Assembly: GCA_030141605.1 (NCBI GenBank)
Contig: JAQGDQ010000546.1
Span: forward strand, 1 to 64,000
Length of the DNA stretch: 64,000 nucleotides
Reading direction: 5' to 3'
Source of the DNA: Tubiluchus corallicola
Taxonomy: Eukaryota > Animalia > Priapulida
The notes beneath the pieces are model-generated. The model saw only the letters and a program-made list of their open reading frames with translations. It ran no database searches and was not told where the DNA came from. Shown here piece by piece: positions 871 to 62,469 of this stretch (positions are counted from its first letter, which is position 1; every line of letters begins with the position of its first letter). Both the position numbers and the translations under genes were made by a program.

Positions 871-3800
871 TTCTTACTGTGCATGGACAATATTTTGAAG
901 AACAACCTGTAGACGTGGCCGCCAATGTTAGCGAGTTGGTGATATTAAGATGTCGAGTGAATGCAAGTTATCTGTCATACGACAGTGATTTGGACTGGGT
1001 TAAAGATGGATCATCTATTCTCGATAACGACAATATCCAAATTCTAGATAATGAATGGATCGAATCTGGTGATTTCAGCATCAGAATATCAAACCTGTCT
1101 ATGACAGATGACGCTGATTACACTTGCAAATTTTCAATTAACAAGACTAATAATGGGTGGGAGTCTTCCGAACCAGCCCACGTGACAGTTTTGGGTAAGT
1201 TACTTATACGCCTAAACTTAGTTGTGGTAGGTATAGAGGTCCTAGATCTTCCTCTCCGAGCTCTGGTTTTCCCTCACATCTTATGTTACCATCTAAGAAC
1301 TTATTCGGTATCATGTTATTAAAAATAATTATGATGATGACGATGATGATGATGACGACGACGACGATGATGATGATGACGGTAATAATAATACATGTAA
1401 TGATAACGCAGGACTTATAACGATTTATAAAACTACTAAAATTTCTTTGTTAATTACGATCAAATGAATAAAGTCTTTATTTCATTAGATCATAAATTTT
1501 GCGTCCATACCTAGATTACGTTGTTGGAAAGGATAAAATCGCTTTGTTAAACAGCGTCCTAGCGAAAAAATGGTAATAACGAAATTCTCGTTAGACAGAC
1601 TCACGCAAAACTTCATTTTACATTATACACTGGTCCGCTTGAAGAAAACTTAATTTGTGGCTGCATAAAATCACGATTTTATAACTTTTCATCTACTTTT
1701 GTCATTTTTTTCGTACAAGTGTAGTATGCAATTATTTCTGGACACGTCTGTGTTGGTATTTCAGTTAATGTACATATATGTGGTACAGACTATTTTCATC
1801 TCTAGTGGCGTAGCTAGAGCTTATGGCACCCGGAGTGGCACTTGGCAGTTGCAGTAAGTTGTGAAGATAAATTGATAAAACAATAAAGCACTACTGGAAA
1901 AATCGTTTTGAAGAAATAAATTATAACTGCACGACTTCATATACCTTTCACTGAGATTCCTCTCCAAGACCGCCTCAGGTGTGTCCTAATTGAGAATCAC
2001 TGTGATAAATGCACGAAGAAGCCACCACACAGATCAGCGAAAAGTAAAAGTAGTTCCGTCATTGCTGGCTGATAGGGTGTTTTACTGAAGTTAATTCGTA
2101 ATGATTTAATAGATATATCAGCACCTTTTATGTCAACACAAATAAAAGCAAACGGCTATAATGACGATTTAAAGTTACTAGAAATTTGATCATAATCATC
2201 ATAAGGGAAGTCGAAATAATGATTAAATTTCTAACAGCTTTAAATCGCCTCTCTTCATATTTATTTGTGTTAATCGATAAATGAAAGCACTATTGGACTG
2301 ATGCTATTTTTTGTAAACAATTGTGTAACACCTGAATTTTACAGTGGCTCCAATTGTAAGAGAACTGGAACTGAATTTTACCGAAGTGAGTGGGAACGTC
2401 ACTATTTTTGCTGCCGAGTGGCACCTATTTCGATGTGAGGCAGCTGACGGAAATCCTGAACCAGAAACCTCTTGGTTTTTGGGTAAGTCGTGATACATAG
2501 GACGTCTGCAATTTTATCGTTTTTGCTGCTGAATGGAATTCTACTGTGTTCTACTGCGAAACATGTTCAATTACGTGTTCTACTACATGTGTTCTATTGC
2601 GTGTTCTACTACATGTGTTCTATTGTGAAACTTAAAAAAGTACAGTGATTGAACTCAACGTGACTTTTTAGACATCTAAAATAACTAGAATTGAGAGCAA
2701 AGTTTTTTGGCGACTATCGACTTCATTAAGATGGTCTCGTCATTCGTCAACAGCTTTCTTAAGAAAGACACGTGTGTTACTCAGTTTCTATGTTATTATG
2801 TGCGTTATCACAGCAGAGGTTTATTTTCTGCATTTTTAGGCAGAGACGACATAACGTCATACGCTGAGTCCAGTACAACTAAGGATAATGACACTCTGCT
2901 CACAACAACAGAAAGTTATTTAAATTTCAGTTTTGCATCTGATGACGATGGCAAATCCCTTGTGTGCGAGATTTCAATCCACGAGCAACTTCCACAAGAA
3001 CACGTTAGCGTAACATTAGATTTACGACGTAAGTTTTCTTCCTATGTTAAATCTTTCCTTCTTTTCTGAAACACGCCAGTTTCCTCTAGTTACCGCGCAC
3101 ATGAGAATGGGGTCTTATTTGTAGCAGTCGAACGAAATTTCAAAACTAGGACAAAACAAAAAAGTTTACAGTTGGTAGTTGTAACGTTAAAGGACAAAAA
3201 CATATATATACAACATAAAAATTATCTTAAAATTTTGTATCACTTACATACTATCATACTATAATATCTTTTTGCGCACAGAGCTTGTACTAGCAGCAAC
3301 GTTATATAAAATTAGAAATTTAAACTTCCGGGATGACCTTTAGGTGCAGCAATTTTAACGTAACTTGTTTTAACCTATAAGTCATTCGAAATAACTTTAT
3401 ATAACATTGCTTAAAGTTGGAAAAATAATCAGGGCATTCGACGATTCGTAACGCATTCATCGCCAAATAAGCAAAAGTTTAAATTACTGTATGTTGTCAA
3501 GAAAATCAATAATAATAATGTGATTTTTGCAGAGTCAGTGTTGCACACTTAGATGGTTATAGAGTGATGTTTTAACAGATGGCCCGAACGTTTTATATTA
3601 CCAAGAATTTTCTTTTTTAGTTACATAAGTCTTTACATCTAGTTACATAGGTAAGCGTAATGCTAAGTAATATAATTTTGTATGGAAGGTTTGGGGGATA
3701 TATTTTAAATTGTCTTTTTGTTCCTTTTTAAGTAAATTATCGTTTTATGATTAATTGAAATATTTTTTCGTTTGAGTACATCTTCAACCACGATTTCCCA

Positions 3801-6452
3801 CTCCCTTTGCTTCTTTTGCAGGTGCACCATATTTTAGAGTTCCCGACCTGCTACACTGTTCACGAAAAAATGAGTTAGGATCAGAAGAGTCAGTAACTAC
3901 ACCTATTTTCTGCTCGAAACCGAGGTTTACAAGAGTTACATGGTATTGGGGTTCAAAGAATTTTACCACAAATGAAACAACAGAAATAGAAGACTTTAGA
4001 ATAATTAACATCACAGCAGCTGATAAGGGTAATGTGACATCAGAGGAATGCTTTGAAGCAATACTGCTTGTCAAAAAACTGGAAAATGATGATTTTGATA
4101 ACTGGACATTTCAAGTGGAACTTGATGTTGATGAGCTAAGCACCACTCGTCACTTAATATTTGAATGTGAAATTAGAGAGGTTGATGAAGGTAAATTAAT
4201 TTCTACTTTGTGAATGGCTTATTAAAATGATATTTAATATGGGCTGCATGATAAACTAAAAATGATGTTATAACTAAACTTAAATTCACTTAGAAATGTA
4301 CTAAGATATATAAGCACAATCAAACTTTTTTTTAGAAGATGTTGATGAGGGGAATGTTTGGCTAATAGTTGGACTGACATTAACGGGCGTTCTGCTGGTG
4401 ATTATCCTAGTAGTGGTTATTGCTGCATATTGGAAGAAATTATTTTGTTTCAGTAAGAAAACTGCCCATGCACCACCAATCAAACTTGAATCGCCAAAAG
4501 GTAAATCACACTCTAGTTTTGAAAATGTCACTTTTTTCTGGCTTATTTTAGAAGCATCAATTTTAAATCTGTAGGTGTAGTAACGTAGCTACATATTGAA
4601 AAATTACAAACCGTGCCAACAGCAGCCAAAATAGAAATTTCATGGATGTTTTGAAGAAATTTTCAGGACAAATTTAATTCCAGCAAACAACAAAATTTGC
4701 TGGAAATGTTTGCTGGAACTTGATAATGAGACAGTGTCTTGAAAATTTATGCACTCAAAAATCAATAAAATTTCTATTTTATCTGCAGTTGGCGAAGTTT
4801 TTACAGTACTATTTTTAGTTGGTTGAAATCACTAATTATTAAGCCTAGTAACCGGATAAAGAAAGAAACAAATCCAGAAAATACCAGTTTATGACAGTAC
4901 TAGAACAGTGTGTCACTGCCGTTTTATTGCTTGTGTATCGCGTAGGCTCTATTTTTTTATGAACAACCATTTTTCTTGAAGAATATGATGCTAATTTGTG
5001 TAACCTAATACAAGCGCATGCTAATAAGTATCAGATCCTCAAATTAAGAGTGTAACACACGTGTGGATAAAGTTGGCTTAGGTCATCACATATATTTGTT
5101 ATTTATCAAGTATATGAAAACTGTTTCTGGTTGTCCTGGTTGTGTGGCCAAGTGGTTTAGATTTCGGACTGCAACTAGAGTCTTGCGCAGTCTTGAGTTT
5201 GAAATTAGCGACTGTCAACGTCAGGGCGCATAACCTACATGTTTATCGTTATTTGTGTGTTTCGTCCTTACGTGTATTGCTGTGTCGCTAAATAGCCGTT
5301 AGTGTTAATGTTGTCTGTTTTAAATGAGCGACGGTAAATAAGTCTTGTCTTTTTTCTGAAGTGACTAAGAATCAAGTTTCTTTATTTAAAACCTTTATTT
5401 GCTGGGTCGAATTACAACAAACTGATTGTGATTCTCCGTTGTGGATTCTTATCTATTTTTTAGGCACAAGTAGACGACCACCACCGATTCCACCGTCATC
5501 CGGCAGAACAACGTCCCATTACAGGCCGGTTAAGTTTATCGCTAGCAGCCAAATCAATTTCTTGGACCAACTAGGAGCAAGAACAATACGCGGTGAAAGT
5601 GGCACTTCTGGTGTTACAGAAGTACATAAAGCAAGATCGACTCAGTTGCCTGGCCACATGTGCGTGACTGTCAAATATGTCAGTCCTTCAGCTCACAAAA
5701 CGCATCCACACAAGACAGAGTTGTTTCAGAAAGAGATTGAACATCTAGAACAACTGCAATGGAAACCAATCCATGACAATGTTGTTCAGCTCTTGGGTGT
5801 GTCCGAGGATCATTATAAGGGTCATATAATGATTCTCGAGTATGCACAGAATTGGGACCTGAAGACATATCTTCTGAGTCATTCTGAAGGCGACATGTAC
5901 GAACAACCTGATGTTCTCCATGATTATCAAAATTTGGGTATCAATTTGAATAGGGATGTGAAATTTTCTTTGCAGATATTGTCAGGACTGCTTCATCTGT
6001 TATCGGAGAAGTTCTTGTGCTATGACCTTGCTGCAAGACATGTACTAGTTACAGACAACCATATTTGCAAATTGATCAGGTTTGGAAGGGAAGAGGACGT
6101 GATTAAAGAACGAGTTCGTCAGTTGTCTAATAAAGAAAACGTTCCCTTCCGCTGGATGGCGCCCGAGTCACTATTGTACAATATGTACTCAGTGAAATCT
6201 GACGTTTGGTCTTTCGGTGTTCTAATGTGGGAAATTAGCAACGATGGTGCTACGCCATACCCGGAATTGAACAGTGCAGAAAAAGTTAAAACTGTGGTGC
6301 GCCAAGGATATCACTTGAAGAAAACAAACAAAATTGGCACTGATTTTTATGCAATAATGCGCAAGTGCTGGAAAGAATTAGCCAGTGGGCGACCATCATA
6401 TTTACAGTTAAATCATGACTTACAGCAACTTGCACAATCGTTAAGCATGTAA
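871..6452 (+). CDS. 3xIg (Fasciclin-3/Kirrel-like) + TM + tyrosine pseudokinase receptor; 5' signal-peptide exon lies upstream of the window
   Basis: Exons 871-1194 (Ig1, C..W..D.A.YTC), 2345-2482 and 2840-3028 (Ig2, C2-set, CEAADGNPEP..W / DDGKSLVC), 3822-4190 (Ig3, FCSKPRFTRVTWYWGS..EECFEAILLV), 4336-4500 (TM WLIVGLTLTGVLLVIILVVVIAAYWKK), 5464-6452 (kinase). All introns are AG/GT phase 1 and the frame is open throughout (about 720 aa). Confidence 0.9.
5133..5351 (+). mobile_element. tRNA-derived SINE-like element in the last intron of the Ig-kinase gene
   Basis: A-box-like TGGCCAAGTGG, degenerate B-box GAGTTTGAAAT, and a short-repeat tail GTAAATAAGTCTTGTCTT. Confidence 0.5.
5464..6452 (+). 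CDS. Terminal exon: proline-rich juxtamembrane segment plus whole protein-tyrosine-kinase-fold domain, predicted catalytically impaired
   Basis: VTVK, E in alphaC, HDNVVQLLG, CYDLAARH, RFG, PFRWMAPES, KSDVWSFGVLMWEI, GATPYP, CW...RPSY; acceptor TTTTTAG ends at 5463. Confidence 0.93.
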
Positions 6453-6485
6453 ATTTCTGTGAACAAATACAATGTATTGCTAATA

Positions 6486-6615
6486 CAGTCATACCTCGGT
6501 TTTCGAACGTCTCAGTACTCGTACAAATCGGTTTTCGACCAGAAAATTCGAGTTGAAATTGTCTTCGTTCTCGACCAGAATTTCGGTACTCGACCAACCG
6601 CCACGCACGTGATAA
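6486..6615. mobile_element. Tc1/pogo (Tigger-like) terminal fragment
   Basis: TA followed by CAGTCATACCTCGGTTTTCGAACG, a pogo/Tigger-type terminus; partner end not found. Confidence 0.5.
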
Positions 6616-6623
6616 GCCCATAT

Positions 6624-8398
6624 CAAGGACTACTATACACTACAGGACGTGTACGGTCAGATCTCTGATTCCGCCAGTGGAGACGGTCTATTTTTAACAG
6701 TTAGTGCTAATAATTTGGACATATTTACCCCCCATGGTGACCTATAGCATGCCACAATACACATAGAACATATTCCTCATTCATCTAGTAATTTAAAAAC
6801 AGTGGTACCTATGATATCCCCCCCCCCAAAGAAAACTGATATCATCACGCTGGGGCCACCATGTAGACATTTAGCCATCACACATAGCATTGATGTAGCT
6901 TTACTGTCTGGCTCATTTTTTGCCATGCCATTTAGCACACCCCCTGAAAAAGCCACTGTTGGGCGTATTTTCACTTCATCCACCAATAGCATACAGTGTT
7001 TCTGCTCAGAGCTTTTCACTTTCTGAAATGTTTTACCTAGCACCTGGTCAGCATCTGTTGATGAAATAACTGACTGCAGCTTTCTTTTGCTGGGTAACAC
7101 TAAAAAGTCACGCAGTTGTTCGTAATTGCAATGGGGAAAGGACTCTATTGCAAAGCAATAATCAGACACTGTGAAAGTCTTATCACATAATAGTCGAAGC
7201 TGTCGTGTTAGAAATTTGAGCTTCTTGGCTTTAGCATTAACACTAGGAGATTGTTCTCGGTTTTGAGCTAGTTCAAGTTCAAGAGACTTTGTCACTTTGT
7301 TGACAATATCATCAACATGATGAATGTGGTTGACAACAGAATTCACAACCGCGAAAAATTGTGAGTAAGAGGACAGCCCATTGTTCGGACTGAGGATTTT
7401 ACTTAATGGCACACTGATCCCGTTTTTGAAAGCATACAGAGTAAGAGGGGAACACAAGGTAGGCTTATTGTGAACAATAATTGACATATAACATTGACTG
7501 TGGTCCTCTTCCATGAACATGCACACAAATTTGTCTTGTGTGCGAGATATAATGAGGTTCTGATACGTCTTATGCAGGTCTTTCTCAGGAGTGAATTCAT
7601 TGAGAGAAGTTATTTTATCCTTTTTAAAGAAATAATTCAGCTGCTGGTTCTCAGTTCTTGGAGGCGAGGTGGTGGCTTTGGAGTGGGCAAGCATGATGTT
7701 GGAACGTTGAAAATACTGGGTGGATCCACTGGCCTGGTGTGACCACCTGGAATTTTGACCATTTGAGTATCCGATGGCCAATGCTTTTCGCAAATGAAAA
7801 ATTTCGGTGGATCAACAACAAAGCCTTCGCGTGGAGGAAGAACACTTAGCCATTTCTGTTTCTCTACATGATCTCTTGGCAGTCTGAACACACGACACTT
7901 GTTCTCCGTGTCATAGTTACCTTTGCATTTCACAACTCCACACTTGTTAGGCATACTGTTGAGCACAGATGTATAAAATCCACGAGAAATTTTGAAAATA
8001 ATCCCCAAAGAAACAAACACAAGCATGAAAACAACGCTTCACTTGACTTTCAAGTTTCCCACAATGACAAAGCACTACTACCGGTAAAACGTAAACACAC
8101 TTACGCCTAAAGTAGTGCGCTATTTAAGAAGGAAAAATGAACACTAATTTCCTTTGATACATAAAATAAACAATTGGTACTTTTCTCCCGTAATGTAAAG
8201 AACCAATTAAATGAAAAATAATATCTACCGATCCGTTCATTCTTTAATTTCCAAGATTACTACTCTCTAAAGCGCACTATTCCTAGATTACGTTCATTCT
8301 AAAAATAGACCACAGGTAGGTAGCTGGGTCAGTATTGACCGCCTCCGTTAGCGGAGTCAGAAATCTGGCCCTGCGTGTCCTGTGTATAGTAGTCCTTG
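6624..8398 (-). mobile_element. P-element superfamily (THAP9-like) DNA transposon, internally deleted
   Basis: Perfect 17-bp TIR CAAGGACTACTATACAC extending to about 65 bp imperfect; 8-bp TSD GCCCATAT at 6616-6623 and 8399-8406; encodes a THAP domain and the N-half of a P transposase. Confidence 0.93.
6777..7954 (-). pseudogene. Truncated, frameshifted THAP/P-transposase
   Basis: THAP C2CH motif MPNKCGVVKC..FRLP..W..ICEKHW..PSIF from ATG 7954; frameshift near 7665; then YEQLRDFLVLPSKRKLQ and LLVDEVKIRP (first catalytic Asp); breaks off near 6835. Confidence 0.88.
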
Positions 8399-8819
8399 GC
8401 CCATATATATATATAGTAATTTATTTATTTGCATTATATACGTATACATGTAGGTTACAAGTTCCTGACTTTAACCATATGCCGTTTCATTAGTTAAAGA
8501 CTCCTAACTTTCTATGTGCTGTACTCCCAGACGATTTTTTTTCAGTAGATGGGCGATTCAGTTTTGGGCAAAGGTAGGCATTTTGTGAAACGTTTACGTT
8601 GAAGTACACAAAGTAAAAAGCAGGGAAAGCGGGAGAAATATTTCATAATTTGTAGAAAGGATGGGAGTCGTCCGATCAAACCGGGAATGTCAGGCTTTAC
8701 AAACGACCTAATCGAATTAAATCAGGCTTTCAGTTTTAGATAATATTCCTTTTTGTGGTGGATCCCCGCGGAATGGCGGATCGCTCTGCATTTTATGCCC
8801 AATGAATATCAATATCGCT

Positions 8820-9428
8820 CCCTACATCACTCCAGTGTTTTCGCTAGCAACATTCTCGCTAGTGAAAATAGACATCGCTGCGTGAAATATACAAGTCAAC
8901 CAAAGTTGAACGTAGACTAGCAAAAACTATTTCACGGTTTCACTAAAACTGACACTCAGATATGTGTGTTCTCACAGGACGCTTTCTTACGAATATCGAG
9001 TAAGTACATTATACGTTTGTACGAATGTGTCAATGCTATGTGTGATGCTATTCACGAAGCTCTCTCAGATTACGCGAAAGTCCTGTCTACTTCCAGAGAA
9101 TGGAAGCAGATTGCACTAGATTTTGAAGAGAAATGGAACATCCCCACTGCACTGGTGCTGTGGACTGTAACCACGTATCAATAATTATTAAACCACTGAA
9201 CTCGGGATCTGAGTAGTTCAACTTTTAAATTATTTTCAATTGCACTTTTAGCCGCTGTTGACGCAAATTCGCATTATAGCGTTTGATATCGAAAGACCAG
9301 GTGCAACCAGTGATGCAAGTATTGTCAATGGCTCAGTGCTGAATGATATAAATATTGCTTATGCCATGTATACCAAAGCCGAAAAAATACTAGCATATCC
9401 ACCAATTGGGTACTTTTTTATAGGATAT
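8820..9428 (+). mobile_element. PIF/Harbinger (HARBI1-like) transposase remnant, 5' part
   Basis: Decayed motifs EWKQIALDFEEKWN, HCTGAVDCNHV, PLNSGSE, SIALLAAVDAN, TSDASI, YFFIG; left boundary approximate. Confidence 0.82.
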
Positions 9429-9765
9429 TGGACTGCTGACCGCTTTTAACGGAGGCAGGACGGATGGCACCGCGGCCCACACCGTGCGGCATGTCACAAT
9501 TAAGTCCTTCAACACCAAACCAATAATAGAATCGAAATGACAATTTATTACTAAATATTACACCCCCAATAAGGAACAAACAGCTTATCTAAAAGAACGG
9601 AGTTTGCGACAAGCCTGTGAAATGTGAACAGAGCTGCAATGAAAGACACGACCACTGACAAGGATCTACAGCAGACCTTCCCTTTTTATAAGCTAAGGTG
9701 TGCACGTGACTAGTGGCTTTTACTAACACAAGGTCAGAATACGAGTCTGTGCTAGATAAAGCCAC
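9429..9765 (-). repeat. Gypsy 3' LTR (missing its first ~78 bp)
   Basis: Direct repeat of 21106-21442, about 17 mismatches in 337 bp by manual count. Confidence 0.93.
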
Positions 9766-10880
9766 GATCTTTGAAGATCTAGTCTTCCATCGGGAGGGAG
9801 AAGAACAGCTACCCTCACAGACCAGAAAGCAAGTCCGAGCACTGCTAATCGGCAATACAAAAAGTTTTTCCTTCCATTAATCAAATAGAATCACAGAAAT
9901 ATTTTGTAAAGACTGGCAATTCTACAAAACAACATAAGCTAGTGTATAACGCCTACTGAATTACAAATTAAAAGATGAAAACAATGTCAGTTTTCTCGTT
10001 CGAATAAGTTAAGGTTAAACATTGCATTTCTAGTAACAACAATTTCAATATAACGGCGAGTCGACTTAGAAAACTTCCAGCTAAATATGCCTAAGTATGT
10101 CTACGTAAGAATGCAAAAATGAACGAAATAAGTGTAATCAGGTATCATCCGCTATCCGTAAATAAACGTAACGTAGCGTAAATAATCCGCACAATCTGCA
10201 ATTCTTAATGATTCACCAGTACCAATCATCGTGTCTCAACAAGCAAAGGCATCCGATACCACGGGTATAACACCTGGGTTGGTAGAGCTTGCTCGGAAAA
10301 GATGCACGCTAGTACTCATGTCAAGCATACAGTTAGTTCAAGTGAATTTTCACTGCAGACCCAGCATAAGATTTATTGAGCTTAAGTATTGGCTCCTATG
10401 GTGAAAAACGTCGATTCTCCACAAATTTCCAAATATGCTGTGCTGTACAACAGAAGGAAAAAGGTAGTAAATCTGCTTGCACCGACTACATTCATAGCGG
10501 GAAACAAAAACAAAAGTTGCAAAACCCTTATATGCCACTGTATCTTCAAATAAATCAACATCTTTGATAAGCAACAACAATGCCGACAACTTAACTTGTA
10601 ATAGAATTTTAACACCTTACCGTGTTCGATGAACTTACGCAACCACGGGTTGGTCAGTGGTCAAAGTCGCTCTGTTCACATGGTAGCCAACGAACAAGGC
10701 TTTGTCGCGAAGCTAGAAAATAGGACTTCCAAGGACGAAAGCAACAACAATAAACATCAATTATCGAAAAAAAACTTATTAGAACTAGTCATCAACTGAA
10801 ATCGGTTGACTTAAAACAACGAAATTAAGAATTTCGATCATGACTATCTACTCGTGCATTTTAGACGAAACAGTCCAAAC

Positions 10881-13459
10881 AAACAGTAATTGTTTAGCAA
10901 AAGTAAAATGTTTGTTCTGCCATTTATCTCTCGAGATTAATGCTACAACAAATGACAATTTGCAATAACCATTTCAAAACAATTATCCTTTTTTTAAATC
11001 TCATTCAAGAAAAAAAATCAAAGTTTAATTAAAGAAGACACAGTTGATTTCCAATACCGCCACTTAAAAAAACATAGAAGAAAAACTAATATATTCGCGT
11101 CTCATGCTCTCTTTAAAGAAGAGTGAAAATTCCATTTTTCACAAAATACGACACAATAATGATGACGTGAGATAGTCAATATACAGCCAAGGGACTGTTG
11201 GTTCATCAGCTGCTAAAAAATAAAATTTTTACATTTTGAAACATGCTTATTAAGTAAATTTTATAATTCGAGTTAAACACGCATCTAGTCACGTATTTTC
11301 GTATTTTCATGTGTAAGTAGATGCAACTCCATTCTTAAGTGCTAATTTGGATGTGTCACATAGGATAGTTGCTGGAATTACGAAAATGTTTCGCGTAAGT
11401 AATTCTATGAGTGCATCTAAACGGGAGCATTTTCCTGCTTGTAAAGTGAGGGTTAAGATGAAAGAAACTCTTCTAACATCTCATTTCTCAAGTCTCGGAA
11501 TGGCGTATTCGATGTGCAGTAGGGTCTTCATAAATGAAGTTTCCATAATGGGTTGTAGGTTGTTTTGGCCTGGGGGGGTAAGGTCGGGGAGGACTGGACG
11601 GCAACTGGCCGTCAACAGCTGCATTGGCTTCCAAAAAGGTTAGTGGTGTACTAGAATGGGTCGTAACAACCAGGTCGCTTAATACGAGAACAGGATTAAT
11701 AGAAGCTGGAGAGAGAACAGGCTCCGGTAACGTAGGTTGTGATGTTACATTACGACCGGATTGAAACGATTTGGGTTGTCTATCAACAGCTTTTCTATTG
11801 TTTATCTCAAGACTACACTCAACATTGCTCCTCAAATGGTTCACCTGGGTAGACTTCTCGCCTGAAAGAGGCGTGCGTACACTATCGCCGGCCTTTTGAG
11901 AGGAGTCCTCAGGAATTGCTGAACCGGAGCTACCAGGAAGCCTACCAGACAATTAGTTGTCGAGTTGATTCGTAAGGGAATAAATTCAGCAGAGTCGGCT
12001 GTGTCAAGTAAATTAAGAGTGGTTGAGCCGGGAAAATAAACTCTTTTGGGTGTGGATGTTCGTGGTTTTGGTATAGGCGGAGAGAAGGTGGGCAATGAAA
12101 GCCGTACATCACCGTTGGATGAATTGTCATGGGAACGGGAAAGTGGATCACGAATGGGAACTAATGGGATCACGAAACAGTAATTGTTTAGCAAAAGTAA
12201 AATGTTTGTTCTGCCATTTATCTCTCGAGATTAATGCTACAACAAATGACAATTTGCAATAACCATTTCAAAACAATTATCCTTTTTTTAAATCTCATTC
12301 AAGAAAAAAAATCAAAATTTAATTAAAGAAGACACAGTTGATTTCCAATACCGCCACTTAAAAAAACATAGAAGAAAAACTAATATATTCGCGTCTCATG
12401 CTCTCTTTAAAGAAGAGTGAAAATTCCATTTTTCACAAAATACGACACAATAATGATGACGTGAGATAGTCAATATACAGCCAAGGGACTGTTGGTTCAT
12501 CAGCTGCTAAAAAATAAAATTTTTACATTTTGAAACATGCTTATTAAGTAAATTTTATAATTCGAGTTAAACACGCATCTAGTCACGTATTTTCGTATTT
12601 TCATGTGTAAGTAGATGCAACTCCATTCTTAAGTGCTAATTTGGATGTGTCACATAGGATAGTTGCTGGAATTACGAAAATGTTTCGCGTAAGTAATTCT
12701 ATGAGTGCATCTAAACGGGAGCATTTTCCTGCTTGTAAAGTGAGGGTTAAGATGAAAGAAACTCTTCTAACATCTCATTTCTCAAGTCTCGGAATGGCGT
12801 ATTCGATGTGCAGTAGGGTCTTCATAAATGAAGTTTCCATAATGGGTTGTAGGTTGTTTTGGCCTGGGGGGGGTAAGGTCGGGGAGGACTGGACGGCAAC
12901 TGGCCGTCAACGGCTGCATTGGCTTCCAAAAAGGTTAGTGGTGTACTAGAATGGGTCGTAACAACCAGGTCGCTTGATACGAGAACAGGATTAATAGAAG
13001 CTGGAGAGAGAACAGGCTCCGGTAACGTAGGTTGTGATGTTACATTACGACCGGATTGAAACGATTTGGGTTGTCTATCAACAGCTTTTCTATTGTTTAT
13101 CTCAAGACTACACTCAACATTGCTCCTCAAATGGTTCACCTGGGTAGACTTCTCGCCTGAAAGAGGCGTGCGTACACTATCGCCGGCCTTTTGAGAGGAG
13201 TCCTCAGGAATTGCTGAACCGGAGCTACCAGGAAGCCTACCAGACAATTAGTTGTCGAGTTGATTCGTAAGGGAATAAATTCAGCAGAGTCGGCTGTGTC
13301 AAGTAAATTAAGAGTGGTTGAGCCGGGAAAATAAACTCTTTTGGGTGTGGATGTTCGTGGTTTTGGTATAGGCGGAGAGAAGGTGGGCAATGAAAGCCGT
13401 ACATCACCGTTGGATGAATTGTCATGGGAACGGGAAAGTGGATCACGAATGGGAACTAA
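10881..13459. repeat. Tandem duplication of ~1.28 kb (copies 10881-12164 and 12175-13459) containing the Pro/Ser-rich tail of a Gypsy pol
   Basis: Near-identical copies (about 4 differences seen); minus-strand RPYPPRPKQPTTHYGNFIY resembles the RxxRxxxPPxxY end of Gypsy pol. Confidence 0.95.
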
Positions 13460-14204: not shown

Positions 14205-15771
14205 ATGATGTCAGCTTCGGAGAAAAAGACAAGGAGAACTGTTGCAAAGTCAGCTTTGACAAGGGTACTGAGAAGGCTTCAAAATTTAATTGAAGAGGAA
14301 GACAGTGTGCAAGAAGTTAATCGCCTGGTGGATGCTGTGGAGGCTGCACTCAATCATTTGGAAGCATGCCACGTTGAATTCTTAAATGCATGCAAACAGG
14401 AACAGCAGCATGTGGATGAAGACCAGGCTTTTCAATACATGGAGCAAGAATATTAAAGAGCAGACGTTTTCGCATCAGATAAGGACTACAAACGGAGAAT
14501 CAGGAGAGTTGAAGAACTCAAGAAAGAGAAGGACGACGAAGCTAAAGCAACAAAGGAAGAGGAAAAAATCATCAGGTGGCACAAAATAGATTTTGATACA
14601 CTGATTCATTTATTGCATGGACATATTGAAAATCAGAAAAAGAGGCTTGAGAGTGGAGATACAGCAATTCAGGTCCTGGAGAGTTGTCGGTTAGAAATTC
14701 AGACATTGTTGGAAAAAGTGAGGTTATCATTCACCAAATATGCTTCCTTGGTTGCTGACTATCAGGAAGAAGATAGAAGATTCAATGACGTAGAGACAAT
14801 TGTTAAAGAGATAAATGACAAAGCAATGAACTATATTGGTTCTCAGTCATATCAAAGCAATCATGCATCTGGCATGTCAAAAAACACTGGAAATGAGCAA
14901 GCATCTGGTAGAGCAAAATTGGAAGCAATACCCATTCCCGGTTTTCGTGGTGGCTACAGCGAATGGCCGACGTTCATCACAAATTCGAAGAAGATTGTCG
15001 AGAAACATTATTCCAGTGAATTTTGGGCCGCCATCTTGAATGAGAAACTAAGTGGAGAGGCGGCGGATCTAGTAGCTGCCTGTAATGACAACTACGCTGA
15101 AATGATTAAATGCCTTGAAAGGAAATATGGAGATAGAAAGAAAGTCACAGAAAGCATCATGGCAGAAATCAGAGATGTCAAGCCTTTATCTTCTGGCAGC
15201 CATGTTGGTTTCATAAAGTTTGTCGACAGAATAGAAAAAGCCAGTACAAAACTAAAGTCACTAGGTATGTTACAGGAAACATGCAATGCGGGGGCCTAGC
15301 TGAAACTGAACACAGGTTACCGGAAGATATTCGTAATGAATGGGCAAGGCACATCATCAGCAAGATTGATGAAGAGAGATTGGAACCTTTCAAGCTTCTT
15401 TTACCATTTTTGTTAATGGAAAAGGAGCGCGTAGAGTATTTAACTGCAGGTGTACGAAAGCAATTTGGCAGTGTCAGTAGCCATTATCAGGACATTCAAC
15501 CTGAAGCCTTTGGGACTGGTGGCGGTGCTAAGTCAAAAAGCTGTTTCAAATGTGGCAAACAAGGACATTTTGCTCGTGAATGTAAAGCAAACGGGAAGAT
15601 GTGTGACAAAAGACCTTACGTCAAGTGCAGCACATGCGAAGTAAATGACCATTTAAACAGGGATTGTGAAAAGTTCAAAAATATGAATGTTAATCAAAGA
15701 CGAGATGTAATAAAGTGGAATGGTGCTTGTTATATCTGCTTTGGAAATCATGTGGCAATAGTATGCAAGGG
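14205..15771 (+). mobile_element. BEL/Pao LTR retrotransposon gag fragment
   Basis: RRTVAKSALTR N-terminus, KLEAIPIPGFRGGYSEWPTF..LSGEA..LERKYG (DUF1759-like), RLPEDIRNEW, three Cys/His knuckles; in-frame stop and frameshift. Confidence 0.85.
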
Positions 15772-18700
15772 TACAGCTTATATAGCGTCTACGCATTGTT
15801 TCATGAGAAATGCGAAGGTTTTCTCTGATGAAATGGTGAACGTCATGTAGACGATTCTCAAGATTTTTAACTTACTGGACGACAGTACTTGAATTAATGT
15901 TTGAAGGTGGGCATCCTGTTAATAGATCAAGAGGCAGCCTTAGTTCTCTACCAAACATTGCTTGAGTAGGGGTGAATCCAGTTGAGTCATGTACAACTGA
16001 TCTGTATGAAAGCAAAAACAAAGGAATCTTTTCATCCCAATCACGCTGGTGGGCACTAGTGAATTGCGCAAGCTGTCGGGAAATGGTCCTTATAAAGCGC
16101 TTGCACATTCCATCGCTTTTTGGGTTAAGCGCAGTCGTTCGAGTTTTCTCAATACCAATAATATTACAGCATTGCTGAAAGATCTTACTTTCAAAATTTC
16201 GGCCTTGGTCTGAATGAATTTCGTTTGGTAACCCAAATCGGCAAAAAAATCGTTTACCAATACTGCAGCTATAGTCTCGGCTTCTTGGTTCGGTAAGGGA
16301 TAGCATTCCGGCCATTTTGAGAAATAATCCACTGAAACTAATATGTATTTGTTGTTAGAATTAGACAACGGAAAAGGACCTGCCACGTCAATGGCGATTC
16401 GTTCCATAGGGGCGCCCACGCGGTATAGTTGTAAAGGTGCTCGAGGTTTTCGCTGCGGTCTCTTTTTCTTGCAACAAATTTCGCAAGTTCGCGTCCATAT
16501 TTCAACATCTTGCCGCATTCCCGGCCAAAAGAAGCGCTGCCGCAGTAAATCAAGAGTTTTGTTTTGTCCAAAATGGCCTGCAGTTGGAGATGAATGCATT
16601 TCCGTTAAAACTTTTTCGCGAAAAGCGCGAGGGACTAACCATTGCCGGCGAGTAAGACTCCCTTCAGGGCTTTCCCATATCCGCTGCAGAATGCCATCTT
16701 TTAAGCGCAGTGTGTCCCAATGCGCTAAAACCGCTTTAGCGTCTCTACTAAGTGGTGATCGCTGTTCCCATGTTGGTTTTTCGGTTGACGTTTCAAGAAA
16801 CGCTATGACTGGTGCTAGATCTTTATCATTTAATTGACCCTCTTTAAAACCTAGTCCAGTATCACGCAAAGTTGCACCGACTTTGACTAATTTTGCCGGT
16901 TCAGTGATTTCTGGTTTCACACATTTTGATGCCTGACTAATTTCACTGTCAATTTTACTTCCTAAGACTGACTGTAAGGCATTTTTGCTATTTTCAGCTT
17001 CTGAATTATTAACTGTTCTCAGAGTTTCAAATTTTATTTCACGTTTGTTGCAATGAGAGCATTCGTGTTCGCATGGCCGTCTAGACAGCGCGTCTGCATT
17101 CGCGTGACTTTTATCGGGCCTATGCTCTATCTTGTACTGATATTGGTCCAATTTCGCAAGCAGCCATCGAGCTAATTGTCCTTTCGGGCGTTTAAGCGTG
17201 CGAAGCCAGCGAAGTGCCGCATTGTCGGTGCGTACAGAAAAGGGTTTTCCGTAGAGATAGTGATGGAAGTTGGTCACCGCTTTTATCACGGCCAGGAGAT
17301 CAAAGTCTAATTGCACAGTAATTGCGTTCTGCGGGGCTAAGTATTTGACTGTAATAGGTAATTACACGTTTATGTCCATTTTGGACTTGAGAGAGTACAG
17401 CACCGATGGCGGCATTACTAGCATCGGTGTCAAGTATGAAATCTTTATCGAACTGAGGATACGCCAGTACAGGGGAGGAAGTAAGCAAGGCTTTAAGTCT
17501 CTCAAAAGACTGCTGCTGGTCTTGTTGCCACAAGAAAGGTTGGTGTTTACGAGTTAGTTCGTGCAGTGGGGCTGCTTTTTTTGCAAAGTCTTTGATGAAG
17601 CGCCTGTAGTAGGTACAAAGGCCAAGAAAACTACATTGCTCAGTCAAGTTTGTTGGTATAGGCCATTTCGCTACTGCATCAGTTTTTGCAGAATCGGTGT
17701 GTACTCCTTGGGAACTGACAATGTGTCCAAGGTAGGCTACCTGCTTTTGTGTCAGTAGACATTTCTCAGCATTAAGTTTAAGTCCGGCTGTTTGGAAGCG
17801 AGTGAAGACCTCTTGTAGACGCTCCAAGTGTTCGTCAAAGGTGTGGCCATAAACTATGACGTCATCGAGGTAGATTAGTAGGGTGCGCCAATGCAGGCCA
17901 GCCAGGACCTGCTCCATAAGGCGTTCGAAATTCGTCAGGCCAAAAGGCATAGCCTTGAATTGCCAGAGGCCTCTATGTGTAATGAAAGCCGTCTTTTCCT
18001 TGTCGTTAGGGTGCATTTCGACCTTGTGATACCCAGATTTCAGGTCAAGGGTGGAAAACCATTCTGAGCCTGATAGTGCATCTATCGAGTCGTCTATACG
18101 GGGTAAAGGATAGCTGTCTTTGATGGTAATTGCATTTAGGGCTCTATAATCAATGCAGCATCTAGTGCCCCCGTTTTTCTTTCGGACTAAAATCACTGCA
18201 GATGACCACGGGCTGCACGAAGGTTCGATCACACCTTGTGCTTCCATCTCTTCCATAGCTGCATCAAGCTGCAGTTTTATCGGCGCATGATTGTCAGTAT
18301 TGATCGTGTGCTGGACCACGTTGGTCCGGCCGATATCTGCTGGTCCAGAAGAAAATAGCTGGTTGTTTTTCAAGAGAAAGGCGTGTAAACGCTTAAGCTG
18401 TTTACTAGATAGATACTCTTTACTTTTCTCGAGCAAATTTCGAACAGGTTCAGATAGATGGGTGCATTTGTTTAATTTTCTATTAGCACGAAAACCATTG
18501 CGTTTTTGAACTGGTTTAGGTTTGAGTGGTTCAGGAAGTTCTTGCGCAACTTCCCACCGACCAATCACTTCATTAGCTGGTATCGTTACAGGTTCAGGTG
18601 ACAAATTTGCAAGCAATGTTTTAACAGTATTTGCACCAGGGGCTGCAGTTACACGGCCAGTTAAAAAACCTTCGCGACAGAAAAAGTCATGATTTACACG

Positions 18701-19320
18701 GGTAATCATGCCTGTGGCAAGTGACAACAGCACAGCTGGTCTACCTTCTAATACAGTTTCTAAGAATGGAGGCAAAATTATTCGGTTTACATTTAAAATA
18801 TCAGTAGTACCGTCCGCCAAGGGAAAATTTTTAACAAACTGACCGTCTGGGAAAATCAATAAATTTTTAGCGGTGTTCACAATAACATGATTAGCACGAA
18901 GCCACTCCAGGTCAAGCACACAATCATCACCTACAAGGTCATTCGAAAGCCAAACCGGTACTGCGCCAGACCACATTTCGGTTCATTGCCAAGTTGCAAA
19001 GAAACATTAACTGGGCCACACAATTCAAGCTCAGATCCGTTTGCGCTTAAACCGCTGCGATTTTCTAATAAAATTTCTCCAGTTGGTAAGGAAAGAAATT
19101 CTTTTCTTACTGTTGTCTGACTCGCACCAGTGTTAACTAAAATGCGACAAACACGACCGTTTATTGAGCCGCGCATACACAAACCAAGCGCAGGTTGCTT
19201 ATAAGCATTTTTGTTACGAACCGACGCAGAATAATTAATCGTGTAATGCGATGTGGGTGCTCCTATGGCGACTGCTCGTCTAGTGCGAGTGGCTGGCTGT
19301 CTCCTCCTGCCACCCGCTTT
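15772..19320 (-). pseudogene. Gypsy pol: protease, RT, RNase H, integrase (frameshifted, 3' truncated)
   Basis: ILVNTGAS (PR, D->N), IDYRALN, LPRIDD, YLDD, DTDAS, TDNAAL, H..GHFG..C..C, IDVAGP, HSDQGRNF. Confidence 0.95.
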
Positions 19321-25110: not shown

Positions 25111-25170
25111 AGCTCAATGCTATTTGCTAAAGTAGAAAATGATAATCATTAATACATTTTTATTACACAG

Positions 25171-36730
<11,560 letters not shown>

Positions 36731-38503: not shown

Positions 38504-62469
<23,966 letters not shown>

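Follow-up and report, generated by a model that had tools for sequence, protein, structure and literature searches.

How might a cell adhesion gene come to carry a kinase domain that has lost its metal-binding residues? This question is raised by a gene at positions 871–6,452 of a 64,000-nucleotide stretch of the priapulid Tubiluchus corallicola (NCBI GenBank assembly GCA_030141605.1, contig JAQGDQ010000546.1, positions 1 to 64,000, forward strand; hereafter the window), in which exons for three immunoglobulin (Ig) domains and a transmembrane (TM) helix are followed in phase by an exon for an altered tyrosine kinase domain. The interpretation that we favor, with a confidence that only just tips past the halfway mark, is that the gene encodes a receptor for cell contact, its Kirre/Rst-like ectodomain of three Ig domains being joined, judging from the splice signals, to a kinase domain that lacks its metal ligands and would act as a docking scaffold rather than as an enzyme, an adhesion gene having gained an intron-free kinase. 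The reading of the locus that we judge best is a receptor pseudokinase confined to this lineage that arose through gain of a domain.

Exon structure and the ectodomain

Joining the six exons (Table 1) gives a frame of 723 amino acids, comprising 723 open codons with a sole stop at 6450–6452 (residues are numbered from the codon at position 873). All six acceptors are AG, the donors of the first five exons begin GTAA in every case (5/5), and each junction falls in phase 1. As a DNA structure the observation is real, and the six in-phase, stop-free exons that the preliminary description had read as the end of a signal peptide, three Ig domains, a TM segment and a kinase were recovered here. Pfam profiles recognize an I-set/V-set domain in exon 1 (E 3e-8), C2-set_2 across exons 2–3 and PK_Tyr_Ser-Thr in exon 6 (E 4e-54), and the TM peak spans amino acids 348–370 with a mean hydropathy of 3.16. 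The kinase is contained in a single exon with no introns; the ectodomain has four. No exon bearing the start codon (ATG) was found in positions 1–870, and the start of the gene likely lies upstream of the window. Scans by tblastn and hidden Markov model (HMM) recovered each exon only once in the 64 kb.

The best single-domain PDB matches of Ig1 are domain 1 (D1) of Kirre (E 2.7e-5) and of SYG-1 (E 4.7e-5). Ig3, whose motif lies at 3908–3955 and 4046–4066, belongs to no Pfam family and has no match among PDB sequences at E 10. Metagenome contigs were scanned with a degenerate pattern derived from this motif, and two of the resulting 65 loci proved real, the remaining 63 being chance matches. 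One of the two (L060:125–2368, minus strand) encodes a 748-amino acid five-Ig TM protein without a kinase, and the other (L040) is a genomic fragment with close resemblance to ant records. A profile of these two with Ig3 retrieved 67 proteins among 4861 candidates, namely 66 of one five-Ig family and one weak amphioxus match. The named family members are all insect or crustacean, the kinase Pfam domain occurs in 0 of the 67 profile matches, the kinase HMM matches 0 of 65 family proteins, and none of the 67 is named fasciclin. This family of TM proteins lacks a consistent name, and some water-flea-type members have a long insert in the last Ig domain.

Against an HMM of the last domain of the family, built from 63 of the 67 sequences (four lacked the anchor motif) with the window excluded, Ig3 scores 38.2 bits, compared with 10.3 for the best of 2000 shuffles and 18.6 for the best chance motif carrier among the other 63 loci. 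In an alignment of 61 sequences six residues never vary, namely the two cysteines (3911–3913 and 4049–4051) and one each of Pro, Trp, Asp and Leu. Modeling of Ig3 gave a predicted local distance difference test (pLDDT) of 39 from the single sequence and 57 with the 61 sequences, and the latter model has an Ig fold. Foldseek returned no match for the Ig3 model at E 0.001, and the ESM Atlas returned generic Ig clusters only, whether queried with Ig3 or with the L060 domain. In a VIA comparison the top match was KIRREL3 D5 (Z 7.5, root-mean-square deviation 3.7, 103 aligned), tied with unrelated Ig domains and with a Z within the range of common arrangements; no Fasciclin 3 (Fas3) entry was among the structure matches listed. 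Ig3 is, judging from these profile comparisons, a real, unusual membrane-proximal Ig domain common to kinase-less adhesion proteins. The earlier view of it as atypical and drawn from kinase-less adhesion kin is borne out by the match to the arthropod family; its likeness to Fas3 D3, drawn at the same time, is putative, this domain type having been seen here only in the five-Ig family.

The window protein maps onto the full five-Ig family profile at positions 22–240 (D1–D2, 72 bits) and then at 479–607 (D5–TM, 30 bits), in order. Its ectodomain corresponds to domains 1, 2 and 5 of the family, with D3–D4 missing and no D3 or D4 exon in the window; the family's own D1–D2 match the Rst, SYG-1 and Neph1 structures. 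We compared the ectodomain with a panel of 19 proteins, made up of nine five-Ig family members and ten other Ig proteins, nine of which are Ig-bearing receptor tyrosine kinases (Ig-RTKs). Ig1–Ig2 scored 45–61 bits to five family members, 20–26 to the four hymenopteran ones and at most 19 to the ten others; for Ig3 the scores were 10–25 bits with eight of the nine family members and did not exceed 2.3 with the ten other proteins. Because both parts score higher for the family than for other Ig proteins, the comparison favors a chimera in which the ectodomain comes from the adhesion family and the kinase from elsewhere, and the ectodomain is kin to the kinase-less, Kirre/Rst-like five-Ig family, closer than to any Ig-RTK ectodomain compared.

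Read set X1 behaves as DNA, its contigs spanning introns and crossing the acceptor at 5464, and X2 matched repeats only; splice junctions of the gene were absent from both, which carries no information on expression. X1 contigs of depth 2 differ from the window at 3915, 3953 and 3959 (three non-synonymous differences in Ig3) and at 4370 (one synonymous difference in the TM exon), any of which may be errors. The changes in Ig3 would suit a polymorphic immune or self-recognition receptor, with a V and C2 ectodomain binding non-self ligands and a dead kinase carrying docking tyrosines, but we give this little credence: the amino acid differences are confined to one low-depth contig, the X1 contig over 5464–5875 shows no coding difference from the window, the exons are present in one copy each in the 64 kb, and the kin of the ectodomain are Kirre/Rst-type adhesion proteins. 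The contig containing that last stretch runs from late intron 5 into the kinase exon, of which it takes in the first 412 bases (5290–5875). Its depth is 15, as against 2–5 for seven other single-copy pieces, depth here not being copy number.

The kinase domain and its relatives

Relatives of the kinase were sought among proteins of 575–2000 amino acids, and 89 of 1710 candidates matched. These comprise Cad96Ca, RET, orphan RTKs of insects, and proteins labeled 'FGFR-like' from echinoderms and amphioxus, and their identity to the window kinase is 30–40%. Aligned to them, the window kinase keeps K465, E485, D582 and APE, its catalytic loop reads CYDLAARH, RFG replaces DFG, and the Gly loop carries two small insertions, so that each motif reported in the preliminary description was confirmed. 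The H, R and N of the catalytic loop occur in all 89 matches and DFG in 87, the other two having NFG; the window kinase has H580C, R581Y, N587H and D600R. Among 66 positions that are at least 95% constant in the matches, 47 are kept and 19 lost, the losses including these four, the Gly-loop Phe, the beta3 Ala (Thr here, in VTVK) and the hinge Gly, whose place is taken by Trp525 at what we take to be the solvent front. Also kept are R586, WMAPESL, DVWS-G, WE, PY, CW, RP and three Gly of the Gly loop. The loss of the HRD Arg coincides with the loss of every activation-loop Tyr. In established kinase chemistry, the positions of Asn587 and Asp600 are the two metal ligands. Normal catalysis is unlikely because both of these sites are replaced, and we predict that the domain is likely a docking scaffold rather than an enzyme. 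The proline-rich stretch before it fits RxxPxxP, presumably an SH3-ligand pattern, and its kinase insert contains a YxN, which we take to be a Grb2-type docking pattern; a YxN lies within the insert in 70 of the 89 matches, but not at the same aligned column.

There are precedents for these substitutions, as EphB6 has RLG, with Arg at the DFG Asp, and EphA10 has His at the catalytic-loop Asn, the same replacements as here (PMC13259870, Table 2). The catalogue of known receptor pseudokinases in the preliminary description named both receptors and omitted these residue precedents. Both are listed in that table with accessible ATP (adenosine triphosphate) sites, and the window kinase retains K465, E485, D582, R586 and the three loop Gly, which would accord with weak or metal-independent activity, or with ATP binding as a switch, Arg600 or His587 replacing the metal. 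Such residual activity strikes us as a long shot, as both magnesium ligands are gone, a Trp stands at the mouth of the pocket where all 89 matches have Gly, and Thr substitutes for the beta3 Ala.

In a neutral simulation limited to substitutions (2000 runs), the frame stayed free of stops in three runs at 29% amino acid change and in none at 40%. Neutral decay of the frame is unlikely, and the open 723-amino acid frame and the simulation agree with the earlier impression that the gene is maintained; on this sequence evidence the gene is probably functional. The simulation would also be compatible with a recent copying event from a gene that had diverged beforehand.

The best single-domain PDB match of the kinase is FGFR2 at 134 bits, Cad96Ca and the orphan kinases reach up to 154 bits, and PTK7, whose kinase falls in the insulin-receptor-like subgroup, is not among the best 60 of 1330 PDB matches. 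We built two trees, a quick one of 45 rows (44 of the 89 matches) and a second of 21 rows (20 matches), whose sampling contained no true FGFR, PTK7, ROR, vertebrate Tie, Kirre, Fas3 or priapulid sequence. Approximately unbiased (AU) tests of four placements rejected none of them: the kinase may group with the amphioxus five-Ig RTK (p-AU 0.36), with an Acanthaster RTK bearing V and C2 domains (0.34), with Cad96Ca (0.38) or with RET (0.20). The molecular-brake Asn of FGFR is not present, Gln503 aligning at this position, which we take to be the second Asn of HKNIIN in FGFR2. That Asn marks the FPVR subgroup (PMC8662651).

Weighing the origin of the gene

In the scenario that we favor, an adhesion gene would have gained a kinase of the RET/FGFR/Cad96Ca-like group, free of introns and possibly a retrocopy, as a new last exon, after which catalysis would have been lost and the kinase fold kept. 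An intron-free kinase beside a four-intron ectodomain fits a retrocopy, and intron loss could also explain it. Shuffling of ectodomains does occur in RTKs (PMC8662651). The lineage-specific chimera proposed in the preliminary description is supported as regards the ectodomain, which comes from a kinase-less adhesion family, and is less secure for the kinase, which is unplaced, and for the predicted join. The ectodomain lies nearer the kinase-less family than any Ig-RTK compared, and the kinase has no supported sister in the trees. A bolder form of the idea, in which a Kirre/Fas3-type adhesion gene captured a retroposed kinase as its last exon, the kinase died, and it was kept as a scaffold conserved across an animal group (perhaps the priapulids), so that a receptor pseudokinase would have originated independently and would couple cell adhesion to SH2 and SH3 signaling, as in PTK7/Off-track but from different parts, is one that we would not bet on, though it deserves stating.

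Several observations weigh against a gene built by domain gain. Retroposition is reported to account for less than 1% of domain gains (PMC2926785). No orthologue of the kinase was found among the 1710 candidates, the best identity being 37–40%, and its branch is very long (3.3 in the tree of 45 rows and 2.0 in that of 21). K465, E485 and D582 remain in a domain that we regard as a scaffold. The score of Ig3 is partly circular, as the family was reached through the motif of the window itself, and with the motif masked it falls to 12.6 bits compared with 8.9 for the best shuffle; a search with the single Ig3 sequence matched 0 of 46 candidates. The lone Ig3 match among 1.84 billion representatives, a repeat protein that we take to be Calx-beta-like, was rejected as a composition match, leaving no Ig3 relative from that search. 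The remaining two points, the join of the exons and the existence elsewhere of a similar layout, each lead to a distinct alternative.

The join of the TM and kinase exons is one that we infer from in-phase splice signals. The kinase acceptor at 5464 has 13 pyrimidines in 15, ties for the best tract among the six acceptors of the gene, and is the only one of five strong acceptors in 4501–12000 to open a long frame, the other four giving 2–16 residues. An acceptor at 4552 (12/15 pyrimidines), with a short tail and then an AATAAA at 4764, could let the gene terminate ahead of the kinase exon, and A(A/T)TAAA is absent between the kinase stop and 7200. These features would fit halves that are normally unjoined, with a short-tailed adhesion gene ending at 4574 and an exon 6 that is separate or rarely used, for instance as a recent copy of a diverged kinase gene, which the neutral simulation allows. 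We consider this improbable, since the exon 6 acceptor is strong and in phase, exon 6 opens with a juxtamembrane-like stretch and has no ATG exon of its own in view upstream, and the tails of the five-Ig relatives run to about 84–196 amino acids (62 of 63) rather than 30–50.

The second alternative is an old, fast-evolving Ig-RTK. In this account a bilaterian Kirrel-like receptor had an active kinase, which arthropods lost, and the present lineage kept a degenerate kinase while losing two Ig domains and the kinase introns, the product still being a scaffold. The Branchiostoma floridae protein P0080 (941 amino acids), a Kirrel-like RTK despite its FGFR4-like name, matches the five-Ig profile at positions 93–599 (144.5 bits) and has an intact kinase. 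Because it has both, the general layout of five Ig domains and a kinase exists elsewhere, which counts against a fresh fusion; Acanthaster P0003 likewise combines V, C2-set_2 and TM segments with an intact kinase. Since the grouping of the window kinase with the amphioxus receptor is unrejected, as is that with P0003, descent from an old Ig-RTK keeps some standing, though we think it unlikely. The window ectodomain scores only 9 bits (Ig1–Ig2) and 2 bits (Ig3) against P0080, and 19 and 1 against P0003, far under the arthropod family; a Y-x-C strand is retained in the last Ig of P0080, whereas the Cys pattern of Ig3 is atypical; and an intron-free kinase sits in a gene with an intron-rich ectodomain. 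The claim of a 'new receptor pseudokinase class' was too strong, given one gene, no orthologue, a predicted splice, an unplaced kinase and an amphioxus protein that pairs five Ig domains with an intact kinase. With one gene in one genome, a class is not yet defined.

Comparison with known receptors, proposed function and surrounding sequence

Receptor tyrosine pseudokinases include EphB6, EphA10, PTK7, ROR1/2, RYK, HER3 and STYK1 (PMC13259870). Like them, the window protein in our splice model has one TM segment separating its ectodomain from a tyrosine kinase fold, has lost essential catalytic and metal-binding residues, and carries docking motifs around the domain. It differs in its Kirre-like three-Ig ectodomain, in having neither a SAM domain nor a long C-terminal tail, in keeping the Lys, Glu and Asp while losing the His, Arg, Asn and DFG Asp, and in a kinase whose nearest counterparts are Cad96Ca, orphan 'FGFR-like' proteins and FGFR. 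PTK7/Off-track has seven Ig domains, VLVK, an intact catalytic-loop N and ALG (PMC13259870), in contrast to three Ig domains, VTVK, CYDLAARH and RFG here. The closest kinases (35–39%) are those of invertebrate orphan Ig-RTKs (Branchiostoma P0080, Acanthaster P0003 and Patiria P0012) and Cad96Ca, and the orphan Ig-RTKs carry V and C2-set_2 Ig domains on such kinases; all of these kinases keep HRD, N and DFG, however, the ectodomains are much less similar to the window protein than those of the kinase-less family, and the cadherin-type ectodomain of Cad96Ca is absent here.

The arthropod five-Ig family (P0091 and P0094–P0159, with labels such as hemicentin-like, kin-of-IRRE-like and irreC-rst-like) shares homologous Ig1, Ig2 and atypical last Ig domains in the same order before the TM segment, but has five Ig domains rather than three, an unfolded tail of about 90–200 amino acids and no kinase. 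Drosophila teiresias may be a member of this family. Fas3 has three Ig domains, one TM segment and a short non-catalytic tail, is not known to carry a kinase, and may have a similar motif in its last domain. The window protein shares the three Ig domains and one TM segment, but its long model ends in a 329-amino acid kinase exon, a short rival tail being possible. Teiresias has five Ig domains and a TM segment (PMC7578032), and Drosophila Fas3 is a homophilic adhesion molecule (PMC2200178). In the Kirrel/Neph group (Kirre, Rst and SYG-1) the D1 and D2 types are the same as here and KIRREL3 D5 is the tied top fold match of Ig3. Kirrels carry five Ig domains and end in a PDZ-binding sequence, with nothing folded on the cytoplasmic side (PMC10084454), whereas the window gene has three Ig domains in view, an Ig1 that follows the likely end of a signal peptide, and a folded kinase inside the cell. 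In the literature searched, which included few subscription papers, no description of a Fas3- or Kirre-like receptor pseudokinase was found.

By analogy with Kirrel and Nephrin, which bind through D1 (PMC10084454), Ig1 may engage an Ig receptor of the same or a related kind on the opposing cell. Clustering could then allow an active kinase, such as a Src family member or a partner RTK, to phosphorylate tyrosines of the insert and juxtamembrane region (e.g., YQNL, Y540 and Y414), SH3 proteins would bind RRPPPIPP, and phosphotyrosines would recruit adaptors. Trans-phosphorylation, adaptor recruitment and SH3 sites are part of the scaffold signaling of HER3, EphB6 and ROR (PMC13259870, section 5). 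Receptor pseudokinases are restricted to a handful of known families, and this gene, should the splice prove real, would represent a separate origin with both parents recognizable, a kinase-less adhesion family and an intron-free kinase, and a tractable case of a receptor gaining a kinase and then keeping it as a scaffold by a single-exon, possibly retroposed route that is reported to be rare. The locus also draws attention to an arthropod five-Ig family without a name of its own and to Kirrel-like RTKs of amphioxus that are mislabeled as FGFR.

Table 1. Coordinates of the exons and sequence motifs of the gene in the window.
Feature	Positions	Strand	Basis
Exon 1 in view: likely signal-peptide end and Ig1 (V/I-set, Kirre/SYG-1 D1-like)	871..1194	+	Pfam and PDB matches; signal-peptide reading inferred
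Exon 2: first half of Ig2 (C2-set_2)	2345..2482	+	Pfam, family profile
Exon 3: second half of Ig2	2840..3028	+	Pfam C2-set_2, E 4.6e-5
Exon 4: Ig3, of atypical type; homologue of D5 in the arthropod five-Ig family	3822..4190	+	HMM, 38.2 bits
Exon 5: TM helix (about 4356-4430) preceded by an acidic stalk and followed by basic stop-transfer residues and the first part of the tail	4336..4500	+	Joined frame
Possible rival short last exon: 7-amino acid tail, stop 4572-4574, AATAAA 4764; candidate kinase-less isoform	4552..4769	+	Acceptor scan
Exon 6: proline-rich juxtamembrane stretch, whole tyrosine pseudokinase domain, stop; intron-free	5464..6452	+	Joined frame, Pfam
RRPPPIPP, fits RxxPxxP	5472..5495	+	Sequence
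Trp525 at hinge exit; Gly in 89/89 kinase matches	5853..5855	+	Alignment
YQNL in kinase insert, YxN pattern	5925..5936	+	Sequence
Catalytic loop CYDLAARH	6018..6041	+	Alignment to 89 matches
Activation segment RFG to APE, without any Tyr	6078..6167	+	83/89 matches carry Tyr there

The remainder of the window contains a number of other elements. In the intron before exon 1, a 167-codon frame at 7–510 without a Pfam match, which we presume to resemble the 3' end of a long interspersed nuclear element, is followed by an (ATT)n tract at 733–851. A high-copy repeat begins near 6484, and a THAP domain with P-element-type transposase remnants lies at 6777–8038 on the minus strand, 325 bases past the kinase stop. 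Near-identical frames 1.3 kb apart at 11491–11952 and 12825–13247 (minus strand) represent a local duplication. Pieces of long terminal repeat retrotransposons occur at 14457–15847 (plus strand; DUF1759 and a zinc knuckle) and 16093–18982 (minus strand; reverse transcriptase, RNase H and integrase). Exons with Fibulin_C and EGF_CA at 44473–57486 (minus strand) likely belong to a fibulin gene or the end of a hemicentin gene, and a 179-codon frame at 25153–25689 (plus strand), which combines a hydrophobic segment with a part resembling a coiled coil, could be an exon for a type II membrane protein.

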